In this document: piece after piece, positions 15,133 through 26,565 of the stretch
Position numbering within the stretch: the stretch's first letter is position 1
How the letters are laid out: each line of letters opens with the position of its first letter
Assembly (NCBI GenBank): GCA_018812715.1
Contig: JAHJCT010000024.1
Span: 7,015 to 71,014 of the forward strand
DNA length: 64,000 nt
Source: Candidatus Micrarchaeota archaeon
GTDB lineage: Archaea > Micrarchaeota > Micrarchaeia > Anstonellales > Bilamarchaeaceae
Direction of reading: 5' to 3'
Translations under genes and position numbers: made by a program
Notes under the pieces: generated by a model
The model's database searches: none
The model's input: only the letters and a program-made list of their open reading frames with translations
Told to the model about the DNA's origin: nothing

Positions 15133-15957
15133 TTATTTTGTGCTGAGCTGGGAGATGATGCCTGGGAGCTCGTTTCTGGTAATGGTTTTTCCGAATTTTT
15201 CGTAGTTTCGTTTTTCCCTCCAGCCAGTTACTACTATGTAGAAATCTGAGTACTGGGCCCTTACTGCATCAAACTTGGCTATATGGGCCTCATTGGAATA
15301 GCCCCTGAAATTTTCCCCAGTTTCCACTTCAAAAGCGATTTTTTCCTTTTTGATTGAAACAACGATATCTCCCGGCTGGGTGGTCTTCATATCAACTGTT
15401 TTGAAACGCTCCTTCAGCATATAGTAAATCATCCAACAAAAGAAGGCATGTCTCGGGCTCTCCCTATTCCTCCTTTTCACCAAATGCCAGGCAGAACCTC
15501 CAAACTGTCCTAAACGGTCCTTATGGAGAGCATAGCCATTCTCTACCAAGTACGTTATCTCCTCTTCAGTCAGGCCGTCTTTCTGGTAAATCCCCTTCTT
15601 CAAGTCAATCTTTGGCACAGACTTTTTTTCAACCGGATTCTGAGGCCTTGGCGTCTCCTTTGGATGGGTCGTTATTATCTCATGAAGTTTCTCGGAGGAC
15701 TTGACAAAGAACTTGTGGGAATCGTGCTCAGTAATGACCAAGCCAAAGCCACTCGGAGCTGTAAGAAGATAGTTTTTGGCCGGATCATTGAGCTTGAGGG
15801 TATTAGAAATCAGGTCTATATTCGTGGGATTCTGCCTCATCAATATCTTAACCGAGGCAGTATTGAGGATGGAACGTCCCGCCTTGCTTCTTAGCAAATC
15901 CTCAATCTCCTGGGTGATAAAGCCTATCGAGGCATTGAACTTCCTTGAGGTCTTCAC
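15133..15957 (-). pseudogene. 5'-truncated VirB4/TrbE-like conjugative ATPase C-terminal fragment fused to a C-terminal domain of unknown, possibly nuclease-like, function.
   Basis: ASIGFITQEIEDLLRSKAGRSILNTASVKILMRQN...NTLKLND...GFGLVITEHDSHKFF matches the VirB4/TrbE C-terminal pattern (ATQS..D......TKI.L.N...LGLN....GL......F). The frame stays open upstream to about 16093 with no ATG, and it overlaps the integrase 3' end. The track start is a GTG. Confidence 0.5.
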
Positions 15958-16028
15958 AAAATCAAGGATATATCCGGCGGCCTCTCCGTTTACAAGGGCA
16001 TGGTCCCGGCTAACGTCAAAGGAGGGGG

Positions 16029-17069
16029 TCAGGAGATTTCTGAAATCGTCATCCGATATGTCCTCTTCCTCGGGCCATAGACGTCAAGGATGGCATTATC
16101 GACGTCCCTTCCGCTGAGGTGGACATAGACGCTGGCCATATCCGAGCCCTGAACCCAGCCGAAATACTCCTTCATCTGGGCCTCGGTAAGCTTGTTGGCC
16201 AGGGCGGTGGCCCTGGAATGGCGGAAAAGGTGTGGTGTGATCTTCTTCTTGATGCCCGCTTTTACGGCTACGTCGCAGATAATCCGTTTGGTAACCGAAT
16301 AATGGAGCGGAAGCGTGTCCATCGCCTTACGGTCCAGGTATCTTGACCAGAGATAGGCCTCAGGGTCATCCTTGTAGGGGTGGAAATCCATCCAGAGGGC
16401 AAGGGCCGGGGCAGAAGCGACTAGCCTTATCCTCCGGTCCCCAGTCTTGCCAGTAACCCTTATTATGGCCCCAAAATCGTCGAATTCGACGTTTTTTAGC
16501 TGGATTGTGAGCAATTCCATTATCCTGCATCCGCTCTCATAGAGGACCTGAATCATAGCCTTATCCCGGGGCTTGGTGGCAGCATCGGCCATCCGCTTTA
16601 TCTCATCCTCGGAGATAAGCTCTTCGGGAAGCTTGACCAGGCGCTCCTTGACATGGCACTTAATCCAGCGGACTTCATCTGGATAATCCTCGTCGTTGCC
16701 CTTGAACCATTTGAAGAACCTCTTGATGAGAATCTTCCGGTCAGCCTTGGTCCAGGCCTTCAAATCGCTAGTCTCGACCTTTCCCACGAGCTCCAGAAGG
16801 TCCTTCTTCGTAACCTTGGCAAATGGTTTTCCGAAATTACGGGAGAACCAGCTCAGATTACCGAGGTATTTGAGCCTCCTCAGCCTTCCCAGCCCGATAG
16901 AGGCAATATAGGAGTCGAACTCCAGAATCAGCTTCTTATTCGCTGGAATGACGCTTTTATCATTCCGCAATGACTCCAGCCGGGTCTCTAGCCTTCGGGC
17001 CGTATTCTTCAAATCACACTTCACATCCATCACCTTCGTTTCCAGTCTTTTTACCGTTTTATGCAACAT
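16029..17069 (-). CDS. int: Tyrosine recombinase/integrase, XerC/XerA-like. Intact.
   Basis: C-terminal catalytic region HLFRHSRATALANKL...YVHLSGRDV, consistent with an R..H..R..Y catalytic tetrad. 346 aa. It sits next to a tRNA gene. Confidence 0.8.
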   Translation of the reverse strand: MLHKTVKRLETKVMDVKCDLKNTARRLETRLESLRNDKSVIPANKKLILEFDSYIASIGLGRLRRLKYLGNLSWFSRNFGKPFAKVTKKDLLELVGKVETSDLKAWTKADRKILIKRFFKWFKGNDEDYPDEVRWIKCHVKERLVKLPEELISEDEIKRMADAATKPRDKAMIQVLYESGCRIMELLTIQLKNVEFDDFGAIIRVTGKTGDRRIRLVASAPALALWMDFHPYKDDPEAYLWSRYLDRKAMDTLPLHYSVTKRIICDVAVKAGIKKKITPHLFRHSRATALANKLTEAQMKEYFGWVQGSDMASVYVHLSGRDVDNAILDVYGPRKRTYRMTISEIS

Positions 17070-17533
17070 ATTGCACGAAAGGCGAGGATGCGATCCGCCA
17101 AAACGGCGTATCGGCCCAGGAACCCGCAGCCTGTTATAAAAAGCGGCGGCGTGTTGCCTAGGGAGTTGCGTTAAAAGAATAAAGCCGGGTAAGGGAGTTG
17201 TTCAAACTTCTGATCGATGTGCCTTTTGATCAAACTTTTGGCATTTGTTTACACAGGTCAAAAGTTTGTTGAACCCCTCTATGCCGCTTTCTACCCCCAG
17301 TTTTTGGGGCGCCTTTCCCGATTGAAACAAAGTTTCAATGGGCACCTTGAACGCAAAGCGTTCAATTGTGTTCCTAAAAAGGTGCACTGCAGGCGGCCGC
17401 ATAGCCGATCTGCCAACCCGGCTTGTGTGTAATTAAAGAAAGTTGCATTTTTAAATGATATCAGGCAAAGTCTCATAACATTTCTGAACTTGTTTCAGGA
17501 AAATAAACCAACCTTAGAATGACATAAGGAAAT

Positions 17534-17647
17534 GGGCCCGTAGCTCAGCTTGGTAGAGCGTCGGACTTTTAATCCGCAGGTCGAGGGTTCGAATCCAAGC
17601 TTTTGAAAAAGCTTGATCAAAACTTGGCGTTTATCCCTCCGGGCCCG
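17534..17647 (+). tRNA. tRNA-Lys(TTT) interrupted by a 40-nt intron in the T-arm, at about 17595-17634. The exons fold into a perfect cloverleaf.
   Basis: Exon 1 reads GGGCCCG-TA-GCTC-AGCTTGGTA-GAGC-G-TCGGA-CTTTTAA-TCCGC-AGGTC-GAGGG-TTCGAAT. After the 40-nt insert, exon 2 reads CCCTC-CGGGCCC-G. The acceptor stem and T-stem are perfectly complementary only across the insert. Confidence 0.8.
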
Positions 17648-17803: not shown

Positions 17804-18667
17804 ATGCGACCAGATGGTGTTGAGGTTTCTTATAGATACAGAAGACCAGAAACAAATAATCCGAATATTGCTTTTCAAGGAGGATGGACGACCCACCCAG
17901 CCGTTTATCTTGCACAAATTAGAGATTTAGCATCACAATATGGAGTCCTTACTATGGAAAATAGAGGGCATTGGCATAGTCGTCTTGGAAACAGCACTCC
18001 AAACACTTATATCGATGATCTTGTTGAGGATTTCAAAGCGATTCTAGACGCAGAAAAAATTGAAAAAATAGTAATAACCGGACATTCTATGTGGGGTGCA
18101 GCAGCAATGCACTTTTATCATAAATATCCAGAAAGAGTTTTAGGATTGGTGCTAGTTGCTCCAGCATATACAGACCCACGAAAACTTGGATTTATGAAAA
18201 ACTATGATTTTTTACATCCGATCAGTGAGAAACTTGCTTCTCTTGCAGGCCATGCAACTGGATTTGATTTTGTTAAGAGACATGTGCTTTCTAGAACTCC
18301 ATTGGCTTGGCATGCATTGAGATTTGTTCTTCTAGTTACATTCCTAAAGGAAGCTAAAAATCAAGAAGACGTAGAAAAAATGATCAAAAACGTTTACAGA
18401 GCAGATATAAAGGCAATGAGTATGTCAATGCAAGCACTTTTTCTAATGAATGGTAATCTTCGTGAAAAAGCTAGAGAAATAGAAGTTCCAGTATTAATCA
18501 TAGGGGGAAAACAAGATTCGTTAATACATCCAGAAAGCTTAGAGGAACTAGCGGATTATGTTCCGAACGCCAAACTTGAGATATGGAATGAAGTTGCGCA
18601 TTTCCCTATGCTAACTTATCCTGCGAGATTTACACATCGCGTAGTGCAATTTCTTGAGGACATTTAG
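17804..18667 (+). CDS. Alpha/beta-hydrolase fold protein. The track start at 17603 overlaps the tRNA. Likely starts are 17804 or 17696.
   Basis: Nucleophile-elbow-like ITGHSMWGAAA, then HG-type context LVLVAPAY. Typical abhydrolase length. Confidence 0.6.
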   Translation: MRPDGVEVSYRYRRPETNNPNIAFQGGWTTHPAVYLAQIRDLASQYGVLTMENRGHWHSRLGNSTPNTYIDDLVEDFKAILDAEKIEKIVITGHSMWGAAAMHFYHKYPERVLGLVLVAPAYTDPRKLGFMKNYDFLHPISEKLASLAGHATGFDFVKRHVLSRTPLAWHALRFVLLVTFLKEAKNQEDVEKMIKNVYRADIKAMSMSMQALFLMNGNLREKAREIEVPVLIIGGKQDSLIHPESLEELADYVPNAKLEIWNEVAHFPMLTYPARFTHRVVQFLEDI

Positions 18668-20055
18668 TATTTTTCTAGATAATTTTCAATTTCCCAAGGA
18701 GTTACTTGCAATCTATATGAATCCCATTCTTTTGTTTTGGCTTCGATATATTTGGTATAAGTGTGCTCGCCTAATGCCTCTTGAATTAATCTATCGTCTT
18801 TCAATGCTTTCAATGCCTGCCAAAGCGAATGTGGTAGCGTATCAATATTTTTTTCTTGAAGTTTCTTGTCATCAAAATCATAAAGATTTTCTTCGATTGG
18901 CTCAGGCGGCTCAAAATTATTCTTAATGCCGTCCAAACCTGCTTTCAGCATTACTGCAAATGTTAAATACAAATTACAACTAGGATCAGGACAGCGAAGT
19001 TCGCATCTCGTTGATTGGCTTTTTCCTGCCGAATAACGCGGTATTCGTATCAATGCAGAACGATTAATCCTCGCCCAGCTAAGATAAACGGGTGCTTCAT
19101 AACCAGGAACAAGTCTTTTGTAAGAATTTACTGTTGGGGAAAGGATAGCAGACATTCCTTTTGCATGCTTTAATTGTCCTGCAATGAAACTGTATGCTGT
19201 TTTTGAAAGTTTATATTTATCAGAATCATCAAAAAATGCATTCTTTCCATTTTTGAATAAACTTTGATGCACATGCATACCTGAACCGTTTATGCCAGAG
19301 ATTGGCTTTGGCATAAATGTAGCATGCAATCCGTGTTTTTGTGCAATTGCCTTTAGTACAAATCTCATGGTTGTTCCATTATCAGCAGTGGTCAATGCAT
19401 CTGCATAGCGAAAATCTATTTCATGCTGGCCTAATGCCACCTCATGATGGCTGGCTTCGACATTGATATTAAATTTCTGAAGGGTAGTATTCATATCTCT
19501 CCGTATATCATAAGCTTGGTCTGTTGTTAAATCAAAATAGCTTCCTTTATCATGAGGAAGAGGAAGCAATTTGCCATTGTCTTTTCTAAAAAGAAAAAAT
19601 TCTAATTCAGGACCGACATTGTATTCAAAACCCATTTCTTTAGCATCTGCAAGAGTACGTTTGAGAATCTGGCGCGGATCTCCTTCAAAAGGTGATCCAT
19701 CTGGTCTATGTACATCACAGATAAATCTTGCTGTATTTCCATCATGTGAATTATGCCAAGGAAGAACTGCATATGTATTTACATCTGGTTTAAGGTACAT
19801 ATCGCTTTCATGAATGCGTGCAAAGCCATCTATTGAAGAACCGTCAAACCATGTACCATGTTTAACAGAGTCTTCAAGATGTTTGACTGGTATAGTAATT
19901 GATTTCACCATTCCAAAAAGATCAGTGAATTGTAAATTCACAAACTGCACATTGTCCTGTTCTATTTGTTCGAAAATTTCCATAATCTCGCCTCTCAAAT
20001 GTTTGAAATTTTGATAGAATTCCATTCTTTTTATTGTTTTCTTTGTAATTTCCAA
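18664..20055 (-). CDS. glnA: Glutamine synthetase type I.
   Basis: 463 aa. GS N-terminal beta-grasp and catalytic domain features, including the conserved NGSGMHVHQSLF region. Confidence 0.85.
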   Translation of the reverse strand: MEITKKTIKRMEFYQNFKHLRGEIMEIFEQIEQDNVQFVNLQFTDLFGMVKSITIPVKHLEDSVKHGTWFDGSSIDGFARIHESDMYLKPDVNTYAVLPWHNSHDGNTARFICDVHRPDGSPFEGDPRQILKRTLADAKEMGFEYNVGPELEFFLFRKDNGKLLPLPHDKGSYFDLTTDQAYDIRRDMNTTLQKFNINVEASHHEVALGQHEIDFRYADALTTADNGTTMRFVLKAIAQKHGLHATFMPKPISGINGSGMHVHQSLFKNGKNAFFDDSDKYKLSKTAYSFIAGQLKHAKGMSAILSPTVNSYKRLVPGYEAPVYLSWARINRSALIRIPRYSAGKSQSTRCELRCPDPSCNLYLTFAVMLKAGLDGIKNNFEPPEPIEENLYDFDDKKLQEKNIDTLPHSLWQALKALKDDRLIQEALGEHTYTKYIEAKTKEWDSYRLQVTPWEIENYLEKY

Positions 20056-20112: not shown

Positions 20113-20580
20113 ATGATGATGAAATCCGAACATTTGGAGATAGACAAAACCGACCAGCGTATCCTCCTGGAACTCAGACAAAATTGCAGACGTTCATACA
20201 GGGAACTGGCAGCAAGCACGGGGATGAGCCCGGCAGCATTGATAGAGAGGATGAAGAAACTGGAAAAAGAGGGGATAATTACAGGTTACTCAGCAAATTT
20301 TGATTATCTTGCATTAGGTTTTGAATTTATGGGAATTGTTCAGATCAGCATATCTGGTGATCTGTTAAAAGCCCAGGAAAAAATTAGTAAACTGCAGGGC
20401 GTGGCGGCAGTATATGATATAACTGGCCAGTATGATGCTATTGCAATATTAATGTGCAAAAACAGGAATGAATTATCAGCATTAGTAAAAAAGATTTTAG
20501 TTATACCGGGAGTAGAAAAAACAAATACTAATATTGTATTAAATGTAGTAAAAAAACTTCAGGAATTTGAACAGATTTAG
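20113..20580 (+). CDS. lrp: Lrp/AsnC family transcriptional regulator.
   Basis: HTH DQRILLELRQNCRRSYRELAASTGMSPAALIERMKKLEKEGII followed by a RAM domain. It lies divergent from glnA. Confidence 0.85.
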   Translation: MMMKSEHLEIDKTDQRILLELRQNCRRSYRELAASTGMSPAALIERMKKLEKEGIITGYSANFDYLALGFEFMGIVQISISGDLLKAQEKISKLQGVAAVYDITGQYDAIAILMCKNRNELSALVKKILVIPGVEKTNTNIVLNVVKKLQEFEQI

Positions 20581-21863
20581 TGGTGGTTACCAAGCGCTTG
20601 AACTATTTTGAAGTTAAGGTCTCCCCAGGCATCTGCAAGCACTGCTGAATCACGAAAACCTCTGCCAGCATTGCCGTGATAATACTCTCTATCACTATCA
20701 AGACTTCTTATATGAAGTTCTACTCTTCTTATTCTGTCTGCCCCAAAAAGATTTGCCCTAAAATCTAAATGGCCAACACCACTGTAACCTGAACAACTTC
20801 TAGCCTCAGGATCTCTACATTGTGGGTAGAAAAGATGTTCGGTATCAACGAGTAAATGGCTATGCTTTGTTGTAATTAGATGATATAGTGCCTCAGCATG
20901 ATAACATCGTTTAGCTACAAGAGTACTGGCAACAACGTCATGGATTCCTTCTAAGATGAGGGTTGGATCAAAATCAGTTCCATCAGGAGAAACAAGTCCT
21001 TTAGATACTGCCTTGATAGTAGCAGAACCAGACGTTTTTTCACGTAAAATAAATGGAACCTGTTCACCAGTCTCTCTATTTGTTTTTGTTACTATTGGAA
21101 GGTTTCTGTTTTCAGCACATGCCATTGTATTAGATAAGTATTTTGAGAAGTTAACACGTAGTTTACTAATTTCATCTTCCAGAGATTGAAACAACTGCCT
21201 CATTTTTACAAACACTTTTGGATAAAGATATGTTGCAATTACGTCAGATTGTCTGTCATAACATGAGAAGAGTAGTAATTGTACTGCTGCAGGTCTCCAA
21301 TAATCAAGCATACTATGAGCCATGTTTCTTATTACATCTGGAAATTTACCATGAGACATCATATTGTGTAATGTGTGAGCACTTCTACCTCTGAAAAATT
21401 GAGGTTCAGACATGTCTATTGTTCTTACGAAAACTTCTGGAGGAACAACCACATAACCAGCTTTGGATTGATAAGGTTTTAGGAGAACGTTATAAATACT
21501 GGGTTCTTTTGCATCAGGAGGGGCTTCATCTTGAACTCTGAGCATGTTCAGATTAAGAAAAGAACGTCTGATGGCATTTTGATCAGCTTCAGAAAGATGT
21601 CTTAGAACAGCAGGTGGAAGAACGGTCCTTGCATCAAGTGGATGTAAAATCGCCAGGACAATACACATACCAGCCCAATGTGCATCTTTGCTTCTAGCAG
21701 TATATCTTATCACTTCTTCAGTTACTGCCTTAGCATGCGCAAATGCAAGATGGCCCTCAATTTTGCCATATCGCTTTGTAAAAATAGAACGTGCAGCCCT
21801 ATAAAGAAGTAGTTGTTGTTCAGGATTTTTTGGCAATGTCTCTAAGCGAAATGGTTTTGGCAT
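20577..21863 (-). CDS. Hypothetical 428-aa protein. Third gene of the fni operon.
   Basis: Long ORF 38 nt downstream of the RSH-like gene. No motif recognised. Confidence 0.5.
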   Translation of the reverse strand: MPKPFRLETLPKNPEQQLLLYRAARSIFTKRYGKIEGHLAFAHAKAVTEEVIRYTARSKDAHWAGMCIVLAILHPLDARTVLPPAVLRHLSEADQNAIRRSFLNLNMLRVQDEAPPDAKEPSIYNVLLKPYQSKAGYVVVPPEVFVRTIDMSEPQFFRGRSAHTLHNMMSHGKFPDVIRNMAHSMLDYWRPAAVQLLLFSCYDRQSDVIATYLYPKVFVKMRQLFQSLEDEISKLRVNFSKYLSNTMACAENRNLPIVTKTNRETGEQVPFILREKTSGSATIKAVSKGLVSPDGTDFDPTLILEGIHDVVASTLVAKRCYHAEALYHLITTKHSHLLVDTEHLFYPQCRDPEARSCSGYSGVGHLDFRANLFGADRIRRVELHIRSLDSDREYYHGNAGRGFRDSAVLADAWGDLNFKIVQALGNHH

Positions 21864-21901
21864 AATGGTGTTATGTCATAAACAGTATTTAAAAGTGTTT
21901 G

Positions 21902-23395
21902 TTACGCAAATCCGATCGAGGCAGTAATTTCGAGCTTCCTATCCATGAATCTTTTACGCTCTCCATTGACAAGGGGACATCCTTTATATCCATCATGGCT
22001 TGCCTCGCCTTCATCTGCTTTTTTGTGCATTGAAACAGTTCGAACTATGAATTCTGCAGGTACCATGACGCCATTGGTGGTCATTGTATCTAAATGGACA
22101 CTCTGATATTCTGTAACTGGTTTTGGATTGGTTGCGTAATCTTCCACGTTCTCTATACGCAGGCCAGAAACTCCCATATCTTGGGCAATTGGTAACACGC
22201 CCCTTTCATGAAGAAATGAGACTACACCATACATTTCAGGAGTGTCTGCTGTGATTACAGTAAGGCCGGCCCAATCATGCACCTCTCCAAGTGGAATGCC
22301 TTTTTTAAGAGATTTGTGTAAAAGGCCGCCAACTCCTTTGAAAGGTTTAAGTGCTACTGCAACAGTGCCAGGACCTACAAGATCAAACAGTTTAGAAACT
22401 ACCTGATAATTAGGGGCTACAAGAACCTGAAGATCAAGGCTTCTGGCCATGTGTTGAAGTGTAGCAAGAATAAATTTGTTAGTTGTTTCGAGTGCACCGA
22501 CTTTTCCTTGTACTTTCTCGGCGACTTCCTGGAAACGTTCTGGATAACGATAGAATACGGCATTGTCTCGCATCTGTCGATATGCATGAGTCTGCCCACC
22601 CCAATCAGCTATAGGACAGTAAACTCTAAGCATTGGATCGGCCCAGGCAGTCTGAACTGCGGACCAATCTGAATGTACAGGGAAAATACCTGGCATTCTG
22701 GTTGTTGCTGCCATCAGTGTCTCGGGGTCGTGAATAGTCATCATATCCGCTACTCTAGTGTAAAGTGCAATCAGGAGATTTGTAACATTTATTGAAGGAT
22801 CGTTAAGAAGCTCGACATATGCAGCTGAACGATCGCCCATAGTACTGTCAAGAGCAGCTAATCTTCTCTCAAGTTCGTGAGTTGGAAGAAAACGGGCACT
22901 AAAATCCCCAGTAGTAGGAAGATGGCTGGATGAAGTCAATGAATGGTAAAGAATCTGATCAGTAAGCTCCATTGAAAGCATATCTCTTTCGTCGGCAGAA
23001 GGATCTAAGAGCTTGCCTTCCACTGCTGCCCTTAGAACACATAAACTGTGTTGGAATACTTTTTCTGCACCGAGTTTTTCGTAATGTGCTCGTGCCTCGG
23101 CAACCTTTTTTTGTATAGCTTGTGAGAGATGGCCATTGCCGTTTTTTAGGCCCATAATAGTTTCTATTATACCAGAAGGAGAAATTGACATAAATGGCAC
23201 ACTGGACGAAGGGCGCATTGCAGATGGAGATAAGACTGTGTGAGCCATATGTATATTATGGTTCAACTTCTTTTTATATATATGTTTTTCCATCCTAAAC
23301 CACACTTTCTTTGCCGTAGCAAACAATCTGGTCAATTGCGTCCTACTGGTCGCTATTAGAGTATAGAAATAGGTTTCTTTATAAATGAGTGTCAC
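21902..23395 (-). CDS. RelA/SpoT-homologue-like nucleotidyltransferase. The C-terminal alarmone-synthetase-like domain carries a roughly 300-aa N-terminal region of unknown function. The start may be internal.
   Basis: VEDYATNPKPVTEYQSVHLDTMTTNGVMVPAEFIVRTVSMHKKADEGEASHDGYKG matches the RelA_SpoT signature DY...PK...GYQSlH......p.EiQIRT..MH..AE.G.AAH..YK. It lies 12 nt downstream of fni. Confidence 0.55.
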   Translation of the reverse strand: MTLIYKETYFYTLIATSRTQLTRLFATAKKVWFRMEKHIYKKKLNHNIHMAHTVLSPSAMRPSSSVPFMSISPSGIIETIMGLKNGNGHLSQAIQKKVAEARAHYEKLGAEKVFQHSLCVLRAAVEGKLLDPSADERDMLSMELTDQILYHSLTSSSHLPTTGDFSARFLPTHELERRLAALDSTMGDRSAAYVELLNDPSINVTNLLIALYTRVADMMTIHDPETLMAATTRMPGIFPVHSDWSAVQTAWADPMLRVYCPIADWGGQTHAYRQMRDNAVFYRYPERFQEVAEKVQGKVGALETTNKFILATLQHMARSLDLQVLVAPNYQVVSKLFDLVGPGTVAVALKPFKGVGGLLHKSLKKGIPLGEVHDWAGLTVITADTPEMYGVVSFLHERGVLPIAQDMGVSGLRIENVEDYATNPKPVTEYQSVHLDTMTTNGVMVPAEFIVRTVSMHKKADEGEASHDGYKGCPLVNGERKRFMDRKLEITASIGFA

Positions 23396-23407
23396 AAAAA
23401 AGGCATA

Positions 23408-24388
23408 CTAGTGGAAGAATAATTTGGCCTTTTTTAGTTGTTCATGATTTTTAGAGCCAGTAAGATAGGCACATATTTTCATCTGGTTCTTGAATACGCC
23501 GATAAACTCATCTAAAGCATCATCCTTCCATGCCTTAATGAATGGGTATGCAGCACCACATAGGTCTGCTCCTAATGCTATTGCCTTTACTCCGTCGATA
23601 CCATTTCTTATGCCTCCACTTGCTATTATGGGGAGTACATTCCGGCACATTACAATACAATCTGCAGTTGGAATGCCCCAATTTTCAAAGCCAGGAACAG
23701 GGCCTGAACGGAAATATTCTACCTTGCTCCAGGATGTTCCGCCGGCTCCAGCAACATCAATATAGCTTGCGCCAGCCTCTTTCAGCTTAACTGCAACGCT
23801 TTGATTCATACCTGCACCAGTTTCTTTGACAACAACAGGAACAGAAAGCCTGTCACAGGTCTTTCTAATGGCATCCAAAACCCCGCTAAAATCAGTATCC
23901 CCTTCTGGTTGTACAACTTCTTGGAGTGCATTCAAGTGTATGGCAAGGCCATCTGCTTCAATAGAGCTTACGAGTGACTCTATTTGTTCAAATGGGTATT
24001 TTTTAAGCTGAAAAGCGCCGATATTTGCAAGAAGAGGGATATTTGGTGCAACACTTCTTACCTCGTAAGTCTCCTTAAGTTTAGGTTTTTCAATCATTGC
24101 TCGCTGGGAACCAACACCAAACGCCAAACCATGTTTTTCTGCTGCTTTGGCAAGTTCTTTGTTAATATTCTTAGCAGCCGGATATCCCCCGGTCATGCCA
24201 GTAATTAATATAGGATAACTGATTTTTTTTCCGAGAAATGTAGTTGAAAGATCAACATCTTTTAAGTCAATCTCAGGAAGAGCATTGTGCATGAAATCCA
24301 TACGTTCGAATCTAGTTGTTTTTGCATACTGTGCATCTTTCCTTAATACAAGCTCGACATGATCTTTTTTTCTTGATTCAGTTCCCAT
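23408..24388 (-). CDS. fni: Isopentenyl-diphosphate delta-isomerase type 2 (FMN-dependent IDI-2).
   Basis: N-terminus RKKDHVELV. TIM-barrel FMN oxidoreductase body, including ILITGMTGG and VKETGAGM. Confidence 0.85.
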   Translation of the reverse strand: MGTESRKKDHVELVLRKDAQYAKTTRFERMDFMHNALPEIDLKDVDLSTTFLGKKISYPILITGMTGGYPAAKNINKELAKAAEKHGLAFGVGSQRAMIEKPKLKETYEVRSVAPNIPLLANIGAFQLKKYPFEQIESLVSSIEADGLAIHLNALQEVVQPEGDTDFSGVLDAIRKTCDRLSVPVVVKETGAGMNQSVAVKLKEAGASYIDVAGAGGTSWSKVEYFRSGPVPGFENWGIPTADCIVMCRNVLPIIASGGIRNGIDGVKAIALGADLCGAAYPFIKAWKDDALDEFIGVFKNQMKICAYLTGSKNHEQLKKAKLFFH

Positions 24389-24392
24389 AATA

Positions 24393-25130
24393 TTACCTGG
24401 CCAGTGGGTATTTTTCCATATACATTTGAGTTTGGAGAACAGTAAGGAATGGTAATATGATAAGAGAGTTAATTAAAAGAACGAAATAAGCAGAAAATGG
24501 ATGTGCGAAAAGGAAATCAGCGAATAATTTTAGGACAGAAATGACTAACAATGCCACAAATGACCAAATGAGGAAAAGATGTGGATTGGCAAGGGCCATC
24601 TGCATTGAACGTTTTATAGCAGTAGGAGTATCTGAATTATCTATCACAACAGCTGGCGGTACAAAGAAAAGAAGGAAGGAGATCACTAATGAAAAGATGG
24701 GGAATAACCAACTTCTTAATGGGTTTTCATAGGTAAGTAATTGAACTACAAATAAAAGTAAAAGAGCAAGCGTATAGATGTAAAATATGCGTGTTGCATA
24801 GCTACCCATTGCTGACACAACTTCTTGTTTTATTACATTCAGAGTTCTTTTTGAACGGATTATCAAATTTATGTTAACGATTGTATCTGCGATAAGAAAA
24901 ACTGCTACTGCATATGCAACCACAGTTATGATCAGATCTAACTGTGAAAGTTCAGGGATGCTGCCAGTGCGGATAAATACTGCGCCAAGAGAAAGATAGG
25001 TTGGAGCAGCAACTAAAACAGGAAGAAGAAATGCGAAGATGAATGGGATAGAGAAAATTACTATTAAACCTAAGCGTTTTAGATAAAATTCAAATGCATA
25101 CTTGAATGTACGGGAAATATCATCATCCAT
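24393..25130 (-). CDS. Polytopic membrane protein, hypothetical. The start is trimmed to MDDDIS to avoid overlap with the upstream gene.
   Basis: Multiple TM helices. The track ORF extends to 25355 but overlaps the stop of 25177-26565. Confidence 0.5.
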   Translation of the reverse strand: MDDDISRTFKYAFEFYLKRLGLIVIFSIPFIFAFLLPVLVAAPTYLSLGAVFIRTGSIPELSQLDLIITVVAYAVAVFLIADTIVNINLIIRSKRTLNVIKQEVVSAMGSYATRIFYIYTLALLLLFVVQLLTYENPLRSWLFPIFSLVISFLLFFVPPAVVIDNSDTPTAIKRSMQMALANPHLFLIWSFVALLVISVLKLFADFLFAHPFSAYFVLLINSLIILPFLTVLQTQMYMEKYPLAR

Positions 25131-25176
25131 AGACAAAAATATGAACGTATAATTTATTAGACTTAGCCTAATTTGG

Positions 25177-26565
25177 TTATTTGCCATTATACGCCCTATC
25201 TGCCATTTGCCACACAGCTGCAGATTGATAAAATCCTTTGAAAATATCGCCAGGAATTGTATATGATGAGAAATCTTTCCAGTTTGTTGGTGGCTTATAT
25301 GGTTCGTTATTTGGAAGGTCATTTCTACTGCTATAAAGAGGATTGATTGAAACAAGATAATTTCTGCTTGGATTTATTTGAACCCATGAAACATTTGCTT
25401 TTATTAATCCATCAAAAGCCTGTCTGATATTAAACTTATCATAAGAAGATTGAACATGATCAACCTCACCGGTTAAGATCATAACTTCAAGATCTGGCAT
25501 ATTGGCAATTGCATCATCGTACAAAACAACTGACTCTCTCATATCCCAATACTCATCTGCTTGTTCTGGTGTTGCAAAATGTGAAGGCCATGATCCATTG
25601 AAAATGTTCATGCTTTCCATTGCATATGTTACTGGACGAGAATAGAACAGTATTGAACCATTATCTCCCCCAGGATAATAATCAAGTGGAAAATCCTCAT
25701 CAAGTTCAAGTTTACCATTACCATTAAGATCAGGAATATCCTTACCAGCTATTTGAACAGTCGTATATTGATCATCACCATTGCCATCATGAAATACAGT
25801 ATAATATTGATAATTTGGATTATAAGTAAGATCACTATAATTTGAACCAAGAACAAGTGGACCATAGGCAGAATAACGTGGATTGAAATAATCGCCTTGT
25901 CCAGTTGCAGGTTTAAGCCAAATGCGCCCAAAATCACGGTTTGCTATTTGACTTGAAACTGGAGTTTCCCACTGAATAACATATCTCAAATGACCATTAA
26001 GCTCATTACCATAAAATGCAGGAACGGCGATAATGATATTACCGCCATTTGATACACCAATTAGCCCTATATCGTCGTGAAGAACACTAACATTAGCTAC
26101 ATCATCTATAGTGCGGCCAAGACTATCTGTTTTTTCACCAGCTGCATAAAGTATGACATCTTTGATTGCTAAGATACTGTTTTCTCCACGATAATCATAA
26201 ATTCCATCAGAACTAAGGCCAGACCAGTTATCTTTTGTGCCAGGAAAGAGAAGCGTGATTATTATTGTATCATCCAATTCAGGTGCAAGTTCATGATTAA
26301 TACCGCCGCCATCATAACCTCCAGGTACCCATATCACAACTGGTGCACCACCATCATAACGGGTATTATTCGGAAAATGAATGCGAACTGCAAGTGCCCC
26401 ATCTCCAGTGCTTGAAGATGGGAGTCGTATATCAACAACAGTAGCAGTTACCGTATTATTCTGGGATGTGGATTGATTTGAAGAAGAATCAGGAAAAAGA
26501 AAACACCCCGAAATTAGAAAAGTACTTGCAATCAAAAATAAAATTAAAAAGTTTCTAGACAACAT
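25177..26565 (-). CDS. Secreted lipoprotein with an alpha/beta-hydrolase (esterase/lipase-like) core.
   Basis: Signal peptide plus lipobox LISGC. GxSxG nucleophile elbow in GVSNGG. Confidence 0.55.
   Translation of the reverse strand: MLSRNFLILFLIASTFLISGCFLFPDSSSNQSTSQNNTVTATVVDIRLPSSSTGDGALAVRIHFPNNTRYDGGAPVVIWVPGGYDGGGINHELAPELDDTIIITLLFPGTKDNWSGLSSDGIYDYRGENSILAIKDVILYAAGEKTDSLGRTIDDVANVSVLHDDIGLIGVSNGGNIIIAVPAFYGNELNGHLRYVIQWETPVSSQIANRDFGRIWLKPATGQGDYFNPRYSAYGPLVLGSNYSDLTYNPNYQYYTVFHDGNGDDQYTTVQIAGKDIPDLNGNGKLELDEDFPLDYYPGGDNGSILFYSRPVTYAMESMNIFNGSWPSHFATPEQADEYWDMRESVVLYDDAIANMPDLEVMILTGEVDHVQSSYDKFNIRQAFDGLIKANVSWVQINPSRNYLVSINPLYSSRNDLPNNEPYKPPTNWKDFSSYTIPGDIFKGFYQSAAVWQMADRAYNGK

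Follow-up and report, generated by a model that had tools for sequence, protein, structure and literature searches.

Two adjacent, highly diverged RelA/SpoT homologues next to fni in Candidatus Micrarchaeota: a candidate pair for archaeal nucleotide signalling

Three genes on one strand

A stretch of 64,000 nucleotides (nt) from a Candidatus Micrarchaeota (DPANN) genome (assembly GCA_018812715.1, contig JAHJCT010000024.1, positions 7,015 to 71,014; the window throughout) carries three open reading frames (ORFs) in a row on its minus strand: 24388..23408 (326 amino acids, aa), 23395..21902 (497 aa when read from a GTG) and 21863..20577 (428 aa). The first is fni, the gene for type-2 isopentenyl-diphosphate isomerase (23408..24388, minus strand; 326 aa), which matches TIGR02151 with 389 bits against a cutoff of 281 and also PF01070 (FMN_dh), and is a conserved neighbour upstream of the second gene. 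A reading made from the sequence alone had proposed three co-oriented genes headed by fni, and the coordinates and the TIGR02151 score agree with it. The second gene, RSH-A (21902..23248, minus strand; 448 aa), encodes a RelA/SpoT homologue (RSH) built of a pseudo-HD domain, a helical linker (C3HB) and a SYNTH domain, as found by PF04607, family-profile and hhalign searches and by AlphaFold2 and Foldseek. The third, RSH-B (20577..21863, minus strand; 428 aa), encodes a cryptic paralogue of RSH-A, highly diverged but of the same two-domain fold, and its last 4 nt overlap a convergent Lrp/AsnC gene (20113-20580, plus strand). Identical proteins are deposited at NCBI as KKB44_04125 (RSH-A, 448 aa) and KKB44_04120 (RSH-B, 428 aa). 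The two are probably paired RSH pyrophosphokinases that stand beside fni through inherited synteny only and do not form a toxin-antitoxin module.

The record of such enzymes in archaea is sparse, as the sequence-only reading had remarked, and in this DPANN lineage they are little studied. A survey from 2011 found archaea to be without long RSHs (Atkinson et al. 2011, PMC3153485). A later one described RSH genes in DPANN archaea, presumed to be of bacterial origin, and listed RelA/SpoT in Diapherotrites, Woesearchaeota, Pacearchaeota and Nanoarchaeota, not in Micrarchaeota (Li et al. 2021, mSystems, PMC8407392). A literature search found no paper mentioning the RSH-A/RSH-B pair. For the question of an endogenous archaeal alarmone or stringent-type system, the locus offers two definite genes for expression and assay: RSH-A is a lineage-wide RSH with intact catalytic residues, and RSH-B has been missed entirely by ordinary annotation.

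RSH-A, a counterpart of the catalytic half of long RSHs

The middle gene had been taken for RelA_SpoT-like, and PF04607 does match residues 353-471 of the 497-aa ORF (E 1.2e-10, 42.1 bits against a gathering score of 27). TIGR00691 gives a partial match (E 1.9e-12) that stays far under its full-length cutoff. The RSH-A family comprises 35 proteins of about 446 aa, all from Micrarchaeota-type metagenome-assembled genomes (MAGs) and metagenomes, and the next matches beyond it are bacterial long RSHs at E 1e-4. The family profile matches Rel and RelA chains in the PDB at two sites, the SYNTH domain and the helical linker that joins HD to SYNTH, and a global hhalign comparison with a canonical long RSH, Rel, gives a probability of 98.5% over 375 columns. 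The AlphaFold2 model of RSH-A has a pLDDT (predicted local distance difference test) of 86.9, and Foldseek aligns about 400 of its columns to the N-terminal halves of Rel, RelA and SpoT (6yxa, 6s2u, 1vj7, 5iqr). The suggestion that the N-terminal 300 or so residues form a degenerate HD-like domain can be made more precise on the basis of these last two alignments: the region is an HD-like domain followed by the linker.

The pseudo-HD domain (about aa 40-190; 22679..23131, minus strand) is all-helical, with invariant H55, H67, H102, R165 and D168. It has no His-Asp dyad (H102 is followed by Ser, Pro or Thr) and no ED pair, no Pfam HD profile matches RSH-A, and the metal site of long-RSH hydrolases, H...HD...D (PF13328/PF01966), was not found. 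The global hhalign alignment has low confidence in the HD region and conflicts with mapping by helix position, and local hhalign alignments of two related families (the B1-type and P0055-type proteins introduced below) with canonical Rel start only at the linker, so that the HD metal ligands cannot be mapped by sequence. The HD region is most likely a pseudo-hydrolase, as in RelA. The linker that follows (about aa 195-270; 22439..22666, minus strand) contains MLxIYCPIADWGGQTxAYRxMRDNA, which aligns to the Rel linker, including its WELEDxA. Both RSH-A and RSH-B (P0039 residues 136-226) align to the long-RSH linker at the sequence level.

The SYNTH domain (about aa 271-425; 21974..22438, minus strand) was delimited by residue frequencies and by alignment to canonical Rel. 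Its residues read [KR]301-P-F-K304-G-x-G-G308-L-L-x-K312, D325, K376, Y381, H385, E399-x-I-V-R403-T404 and a final MHxxADEGxAxHDxYK, so that the catalytic and binding positions of the synthetases (RxKxxxSxxxK, DxxGxR, the G-loop Tyr and ExQxRT) are all represented, with variants. Within the family K304, G307, G308, K312 and D325 are conserved in 35/35 proteins, Y381, H385, E399 and T404 in 34/35, and R403 in 33/35. The (p)ppGpp-synthetase signature picked out in the sequence-only reading is present, and at least 90% conserved in the 35 homologues. The roles of these positions in holding the donor triphosphate, in Mg2+ binding (Asp), in stacking on the acceptor (Tyr) and as the beta5 Glu are known from FaRel2 and RelP (PMC11782079). 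Neither RSH-A nor RSH-B matches a TGS or ACT domain; both end about 25-45 residues after SYNTH, and the C-terminal regulatory region of long RSHs (TGS, helical, ZFD/RIS and ACT) is missing.

RSH-B, a cryptic second copy

The 428-aa product of the third gene had been set down as an unknown protein, and it matches nothing in Pfam or NCBIfam, PF04607 included. Direct BLASTP of the 497-aa ORF against it gives nothing significant (E 0.05, in the wrong register), and a sequence-profile search of the PDB with its family yields no meaningful match. The paralogy is visible only through profile-profile comparison and fold search: hhalign aligns the RSH-A and RSH-B families with 82% probability (E 1e-5) over 326 collinear columns, nearly the whole length, and the AlphaFold2 model of RSH-B (pLDDT 81.4) finds RelA, Rel and RelSeq in Foldseek. 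An exhaustive search of 1.8 billion representative proteins with the RSH-B profile returned only 12 proteins. Five of the six distant full-length matches (P0053-P0058) match PF04607 themselves, four of them above the gathering score and with up to 73 bits. Taken together, the profile-profile comparison, these transitive matches and the fold identify the unknown protein as a cryptic RSH.

RSH-B also carries the catalytic and binding residues of a SYNTH domain. Its SYNTH-like domain (about aa 265-396; 20676..21071, minus strand), recognised from invariant columns and from the alignment to P0055, has a perfect RxKxxxSxxxK (R274, K276, S280, K284) together with D309, Y360, H365 and E382, all invariant in nine sequences. 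Their counterparts in P0055, whose motifs read GRIKTTGSTVLK, EDLVAF and IEVQIRT, are R, K, S, K, D, Y and E. Since the catalytic residues are retained, RSH-B is not to be dismissed as a dead copy. The case holds a lesson for annotation: a "hypothetical" gene beside that of a divergent enzyme can code for a paralogue of the enzyme.

An invariable pair with possibly exchangeable partners

Related loci were collected from 11 GTDB species genomes and 9 metagenome contigs, 20 in all and 21 with the window. An RSH partner gene directly follows RSH-A in the window and in every related locus with downstream sequence (18/18). The partner is of one of two types: B2, the type found in the window, or B1, proteins of 479-552 aa that match PF04607 with 32-45 bits. 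On the RSH-A tree, loci with B1 and loci with B2 are intermingled, to the point that the RSH-A proteins of L004 (with a B1 partner) and L015 (with B2) are 80% identical and form a clade in 200/200 bootstraps. This pattern implies differential loss or a recent swap of the two types and suggests that they fill the same role and are interchangeable. Since one partner paralogue, and only one, accompanies RSH-A every time, the pair most likely act jointly.

Three B1 partners (L002:8372-9958, L009:8345-10003 and L010:8372-9961) end in a tail of about 100 aa that looks TGS-like by visual comparison and may be a remnant of the long-RSH C-terminus. A different arrangement occurs at L023:223-3451 and in L022, where a B1-type RSH (512 aa) is followed by a divergent RSH, P0057 (533 aa, no Pfam match), and then by a convergent Lrp/AsnC gene. 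In some Micrarchaeia the tandem RSH paralogues are thus of other types or more numerous, as would fit an ancestral array of at least three copies. At L011:7040-8476, from a nanopore-derived MAG, RSH-A is split into five overlapping ORF fragments between an intact fni and an intact B2 partner; the fragments reflect either frameshift assembly errors or a pseudogene.

Start codon and promoter-like elements

The sequence-only reading had the middle protein start at GTG 23395, with 497 aa and a gap of 12 nt to fni, and neither figure survives comparison with the homologues. The conserved start of RSH-A homologues, MA(H/N/T)T, corresponds to M50 of the 497-aa ORF (ATG 23248) and gives the 448 aa of the NCBI protein. 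In several related loci (e.g. L003, L013, L014) the frame upstream of MA(H/N/T)T is closed by stop codons, with no in-frame ATG in the open stretch, and GTG 23395 itself falls within a conserved intergenic DNA motif, GTGACA. From the fni stop codon to ATG 23248 there are 159 nt (23249..23407, minus strand), with conserved promoter boxes inside; this spacer, read earlier as the N-terminus of the 497-aa ORF, is conserved at the nucleotide level in 19 loci and measures 71-222 nt in related loci.

The box next to RSH-A is the clearest of these signals. Nineteen related loci share the nucleotide motif GTGTGkT..TGGAAAAACATATrTTTAAAAG-N22-ATG in fixed register to the start codon. In the window the proximal B recognition element (BRE) and TATA box, GGAAAAACATATATATAAAAA (23271..23291, minus strand), ends 22 nt before ATG 23248; the motif is unique in the window (0 chance matches expected), and all loci keep it at fixed spacing. 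An N-terminal extension 'MEKHIYKK..HNI' was considered as real protein and rejected: the conservation is at the nucleotide level, the frame is closed in several loci, and the sequence is that of the BRE/TATA box. The apparent conservation of the peptide 'MEKHIYKK' is just the translation of a purine-rich BRE and then a TATA box. RSH-B has a box of its own, so that the 38-nt gap claimed before the 428-aa gene stands in its length and is not featureless: it holds a TATA box, TTTTAAATA (21886..21894, minus strand), that ends 22 nt before ATG 21863, and most related loci have an equivalent box at the same spacing before their partner gene. Each of the two genes has, by these motifs, its own promoter-like element.

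Such spacing is common in the window. Around the first ATG of its 46 long ORFs, TATA-like hexamers number 32 at -30..-26 and 0-7 in each other bin, so leaderless genes with a TATA box some 27 nt upstream look normal for this genome. The spacing of the BRE/TATA box to ATG 23248 likewise implies a leaderless RSH-A transcript. If most transcripts are leaderless, as they appear to be in this genome, an ORF taken from its upstream-most start codon will often include the promoter; here such a call turned a promoter into 49 spurious residues and a false operon junction.

The rest of the spacer holds further signals. A run of six T, 7 nt past the fni stop codon (23396..23401, minus strand), resembles an archaeal oligo-T terminator, and T5-T6 runs at the same position after fni in many related loci suggest that it may act as one. 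Next to it lies a distal conserved box, GTGACA-N5-TTTATAAA (23378..23395, minus strand), a second TATA-like element seen in the alignment of 13 loci and the one that contains GTG 23395; a conserved AGCGACCAG (23346..23354, minus strand) follows 23 nt downstream of this distal TATA box. The second element as a whole (23346-23395, minus strand) consists of the oligo-T, GTGACA-N5-TTTATAAA, (A)GCGACCAG 23 nt downstream and a CAGA box, and is present in the window and in L001, L004-L009, L012 and L015-L018. Candidate roles are a second promoter, whose leader would be about 105 nt long, a small transcript, or binding sites for regulators. Rfam, searched over 19.5-26 kb with E up to 1, returned nothing, so there is no known riboswitch or non-coding RNA in the spacers. 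RNAalifold on the GCGACCAG...GTGTG segment of 13 loci gave no consensus structure, and hairpins folded from single sequences are not conserved; a structured leader or small RNA in the spacer is accordingly not supported.

The neighbourhood and the link to fni

fni lies immediately upstream of RSH-A in the same orientation in 21/21 loci, with RSH-A proteins 40-61% identical to that of the window. The conservation extends to a larger block: glmS, a PQQ-propeller gene, L11, an FNR-like gene, a membrane protein gene, an optional HEAT-repeat gene, fni, RSH-A, RSH-B, the convergent Lrp/AsnC gene and glnA. Since fni is one member of this syntenic block, its adjacency does not by itself demonstrate a functional link, and inherited synteny can explain it. 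The operon coupling of fni to the RSH gene asserted in the sequence-only reading also sits poorly with the spacer: an operon has short gaps and no internal signals, and here there are 159 nt with the T6 run past fni and two TATA-type boxes, with a further TATA box before RSH-B. On these sequence signals, co-transcription of fni with the RSH genes is not supported.

Could fni and the RSH genes form a functional module all the same? The RSH proteins would then have a regulatory or direct part in the metabolism of isoprenoid precursors, be co-transcribed or co-regulated with fni, and in the extreme case be isoprenoid-alcohol diphosphokinases. The constancy of the arrangement in all 21 loci, in spite of the divergence of RSH-A, speaks for it. 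Yet the gap of 71-222 nt contains conserved promoter boxes, with oligo-T past fni in many loci; L11, glnA, glmS and Lrp are equally syntenic; and the gene that sits tight against fni is the membrane protein gene upstream, at 4 nt. A Micrarchaeia RSH, P0055, is found in another context without fni, and the Tyr, Lys and His of the acceptor site are conserved in RSH-A as in a nucleotide-binding type. A functional fni-RSH module is, on this balance, unlikely.

The membrane protein (24393-25355, minus strand) is multi-pass, with no significant Pfam family and a homologue that has a sub-threshold match to DUF7847. It belongs to a family (c3) found in 17 loci; in the window 4 nt separate the end of its gene from the fni ATG, and most loci show the same spacing or an overlap. 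The gene actually co-transcribed with fni is likely this one. A HEAT-repeat protein (PF13646) stands between the two in 7 loci. P0055 itself (L021:6001-7509, Candidatus Micrarchaeia) has 502 aa, a PF04607 match of 73 bits, a TGS-like tail and no fni nearby; it stands alone beside a divergent metallophosphoesterase gene (PF00149). The linkage of RSH to fni is thus not universal in the class.

A toxin-antitoxin module is improbable

The same neighbourhood bears on the suggestion of the sequence-only reading that the pair could be a toxSAS-like module (pyrophosphokinase toxin plus partner), taken here as an RSH toxin with the 428-aa protein as its antitoxin, in a toxin-antitoxin or defence role. 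The RSH gene does adjoin, across a short gap, a conserved partner of previously unknown function, and toxSAS modules (FaRel, FaRel2, PhRel, CapRel, Tas1/Tis1), in which an RSH-fold enzyme likewise has a conserved neighbour gene, share this general layout (10.1101/575399). However, the toxin of a toxSAS module has a single domain, SYNTH, and its neighbour is an unrelated small antitoxin or a small alarmone hydrolase, whereas both proteins here carry an HD-like domain and the partner is a paralogue of full length, alike in fold and with its catalytic residues kept; no small antitoxin-like ORF or small alarmone hydrolase adjoins them. Nor is the setting patchy, mobile or that of a defence island: the pair holds the same position in a conserved housekeeping block in all 21 loci, and PADLOC gives no significant match for it. 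These observations make a toxSAS-type module highly improbable.

A probable paired pyrophosphokinase

The reading that best joins these results is that RSH-A and RSH-B are adjacent paralogues, each probably with its own promoter, and that both would go back to a long RSH, of which they represent the N-terminal, catalytic half. They would have kept the helical linker, SYNTH and an HD-like fold in which no hydrolase motif can be recognised, and lost the ribosome-sensing C-terminal domains. RSH-A, and probably RSH-B, would act as a Mg2+-dependent pyrophosphokinase that transfers the beta-gamma pyrophosphate of ATP to the 3'-OH of a purine nucleotide, giving a (p)ppGpp- or (p)ppApp-like alarmone. 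RSH-A and its partner would act together, for instance in a heteromer, with one subunit regulating the other, and control would come through the HD-like domains and not through ribosome binding.

Comparison with known systems places the pair closest to the catalytic halves of long RSHs, particularly those of RelA type with an inactive hydrolase and an active synthetase. Long RSHs (Bacillus subtilis Rel, 6yxa/8acu; Thermus thermophilus Rel, 6s2t/6s2u; RelSeq, 1vj7; Escherichia coli RelA, 5iqr) have the same order of HD fold, linker and SYNTH. Their linker and SYNTH motifs (K..K, D, PKP..Y.S.H, E...RT, MH..AxEGxA.H..YK) are recognisable in the RSH-A sequence, and the fold matches for both proteins. 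The Micrarchaeota proteins are only 12-20% identical to them, have no TGS, helical, ZFD/RIS or ACT domains and no His-Asp dyad, come as two tandem copies in an archaeon, and show substitutions in the RSH-A motifs. The RelA-type [hS] long RSHs likewise combine a degenerate HD domain, of structural or regulatory use, with a SYNTH domain whose catalytic residues are intact. The RelA/SpoT duplication of Beta- and Gammaproteobacteria is likewise lineage-specific and produced two specialised paralogues. There, however, RelA is activated by the ribosome through C-terminal domains that RSH-A and RSH-B do not have, and one paralogue keeps the hydrolase, whereas neither Micrarchaeota protein has the HD dyad; the Micrarchaeota paralogues are, besides, adjacent, and the second comes in two interchangeable types (B1, B2). 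RelQ and RelP (5dec, 6ewz, 6fgk) are single-domain homotetramers of about 200 aa, to which RSH-A and RSH-B add an HD-like domain of about 250 aa and the linker. Canonical DPANN RSHs such as Pacearchaeota P0118 (PF13328, PF04607, TGS) have a recognisable HD_4 and TGS, and the Micrarchaeota proteins are far more derived and in tandem. With the HD motif and the C-terminal domains absent and RSH-B failing Pfam, the pair is best described as a new, highly derived form of RSH. It remains within a well-known enzyme superfamily, and its unusual feature is the paired architecture. Without C-terminal domains or a hydrolase motif, its regulation must differ from that of bacterial Rel, RelA and SpoT.

Several observations weigh against the paired-pyrophosphokinase reading. 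Some concern the active site of RSH-A: the Ser of the first motif is Gly308, with one extra residue in the R-x-x-K spacing; the Arg of DxxGxR is Thr330, and Thr in RSH-B too; the G-loop is one residue longer (PKPVTxY instead of PKPNGY); and the Gln of ExQxRT is Val or Ile. RSH-B has no C-terminal AExGxAAHxxYK motif, its model is poor at residues 397-415, and it could be a pseudoenzyme. No intact HD dyad is present in either paralogue and no hydrolase for the product was identified, which is unusual for an alarmone system. As for fni, the promoters and the terminator were called from motifs, read-through into the RSH genes is possible, and adjacency in 21/21 loci is still compatible with a functional link.

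Two of these points lead to rival explanations. The first is that one or both proteins are non-catalytic, serving with their RSH fold as scaffolds or ligand sensors, for example as nucleotide-binding regulators. The unrecognisable HD motif of both, the non-canonical residues at several donor-site positions of RSH-A and the failure of RSH-B to match Pfam or to show the C-terminal SYNTH motif would all fit. But the Mg2+ Asp is present in 35/35 RSH-A proteins and the catalytic Glu in 34/35, both are invariant in RSH-B along with the phosphate-binding Lys and Arg, and catalytic residues are usually not kept once catalysis is lost. Pseudoenzymes are therefore a quite unlikely explanation, a shade less probable than the fni-RSH module.

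The second is that the enzyme works on something other than guanine nucleotides. Given the non-canonical positions of RSH-A, the donor or acceptor may differ from ATP plus GDP or GTP, and the product could then be a lineage-specific signal or modification and not (p)ppGpp: adenine nucleotides converted to (p)ppApp, a modified RNA or tRNA 3' end, or another metabolite. The G-loop insertion, the change of Gln to Val or Ile in ExQxRT and that of Arg to Thr in DxxGxR set RSH-A apart from canonical Rel, and RSH enzymes that use adenine nucleotides or the CCA ends of tRNA are known (PMC11782079), toxSAS providing the precedent for both kinds of SYNTH acceptor. On the other side, Tyr381 of the G-loop, K376 and H385 are conserved as in nucleotide-using synthetases, there is no evident N-terminal tRNA-binding extension like that of FaRel2 or CapRel, and CapRel and Tas1 are weaker structural matches than Rel. 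A non-guanine acceptor is a possible, if doubtful, account.

Returning to the paired pyrophosphokinases, the locus is a lineage-specific candidate for archaeal nucleotide signalling. The other suggestion of the sequence-only reading, a novel second-messenger enzyme, may yet prove right. A more far-reaching version, put forward tentatively, would have nucleotide signalling of Micrarchaeota's own, with RSH-A as an obligate heteromer with B1 or B2, controlled through the HD-like domains and making a non-classical product or using a non-classical acceptor ((p)ppApp, an RNA 3' end or a new pyrophosphorylated metabolite).

Flanking features

Beyond RSH-B, the Lrp/AsnC gene is divergent from the gene for glutamine synthetase (18664-20055, minus strand), and the trio of RSH-B, Lrp and glnA is kept in at least 15 loci. 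Further along, a GC-rich stretch at 15800-17603 (0.50-0.55 against a background of about 0.36) contains a tyrosine recombinase/integrase-like ORF (16029-17069, minus strand), adjoined by a tRNA-like match at 17534-17603 (plus strand; 34 bits in Rfam, not called by ARAGORN). This stretch may be an integrated element or a XerA region.

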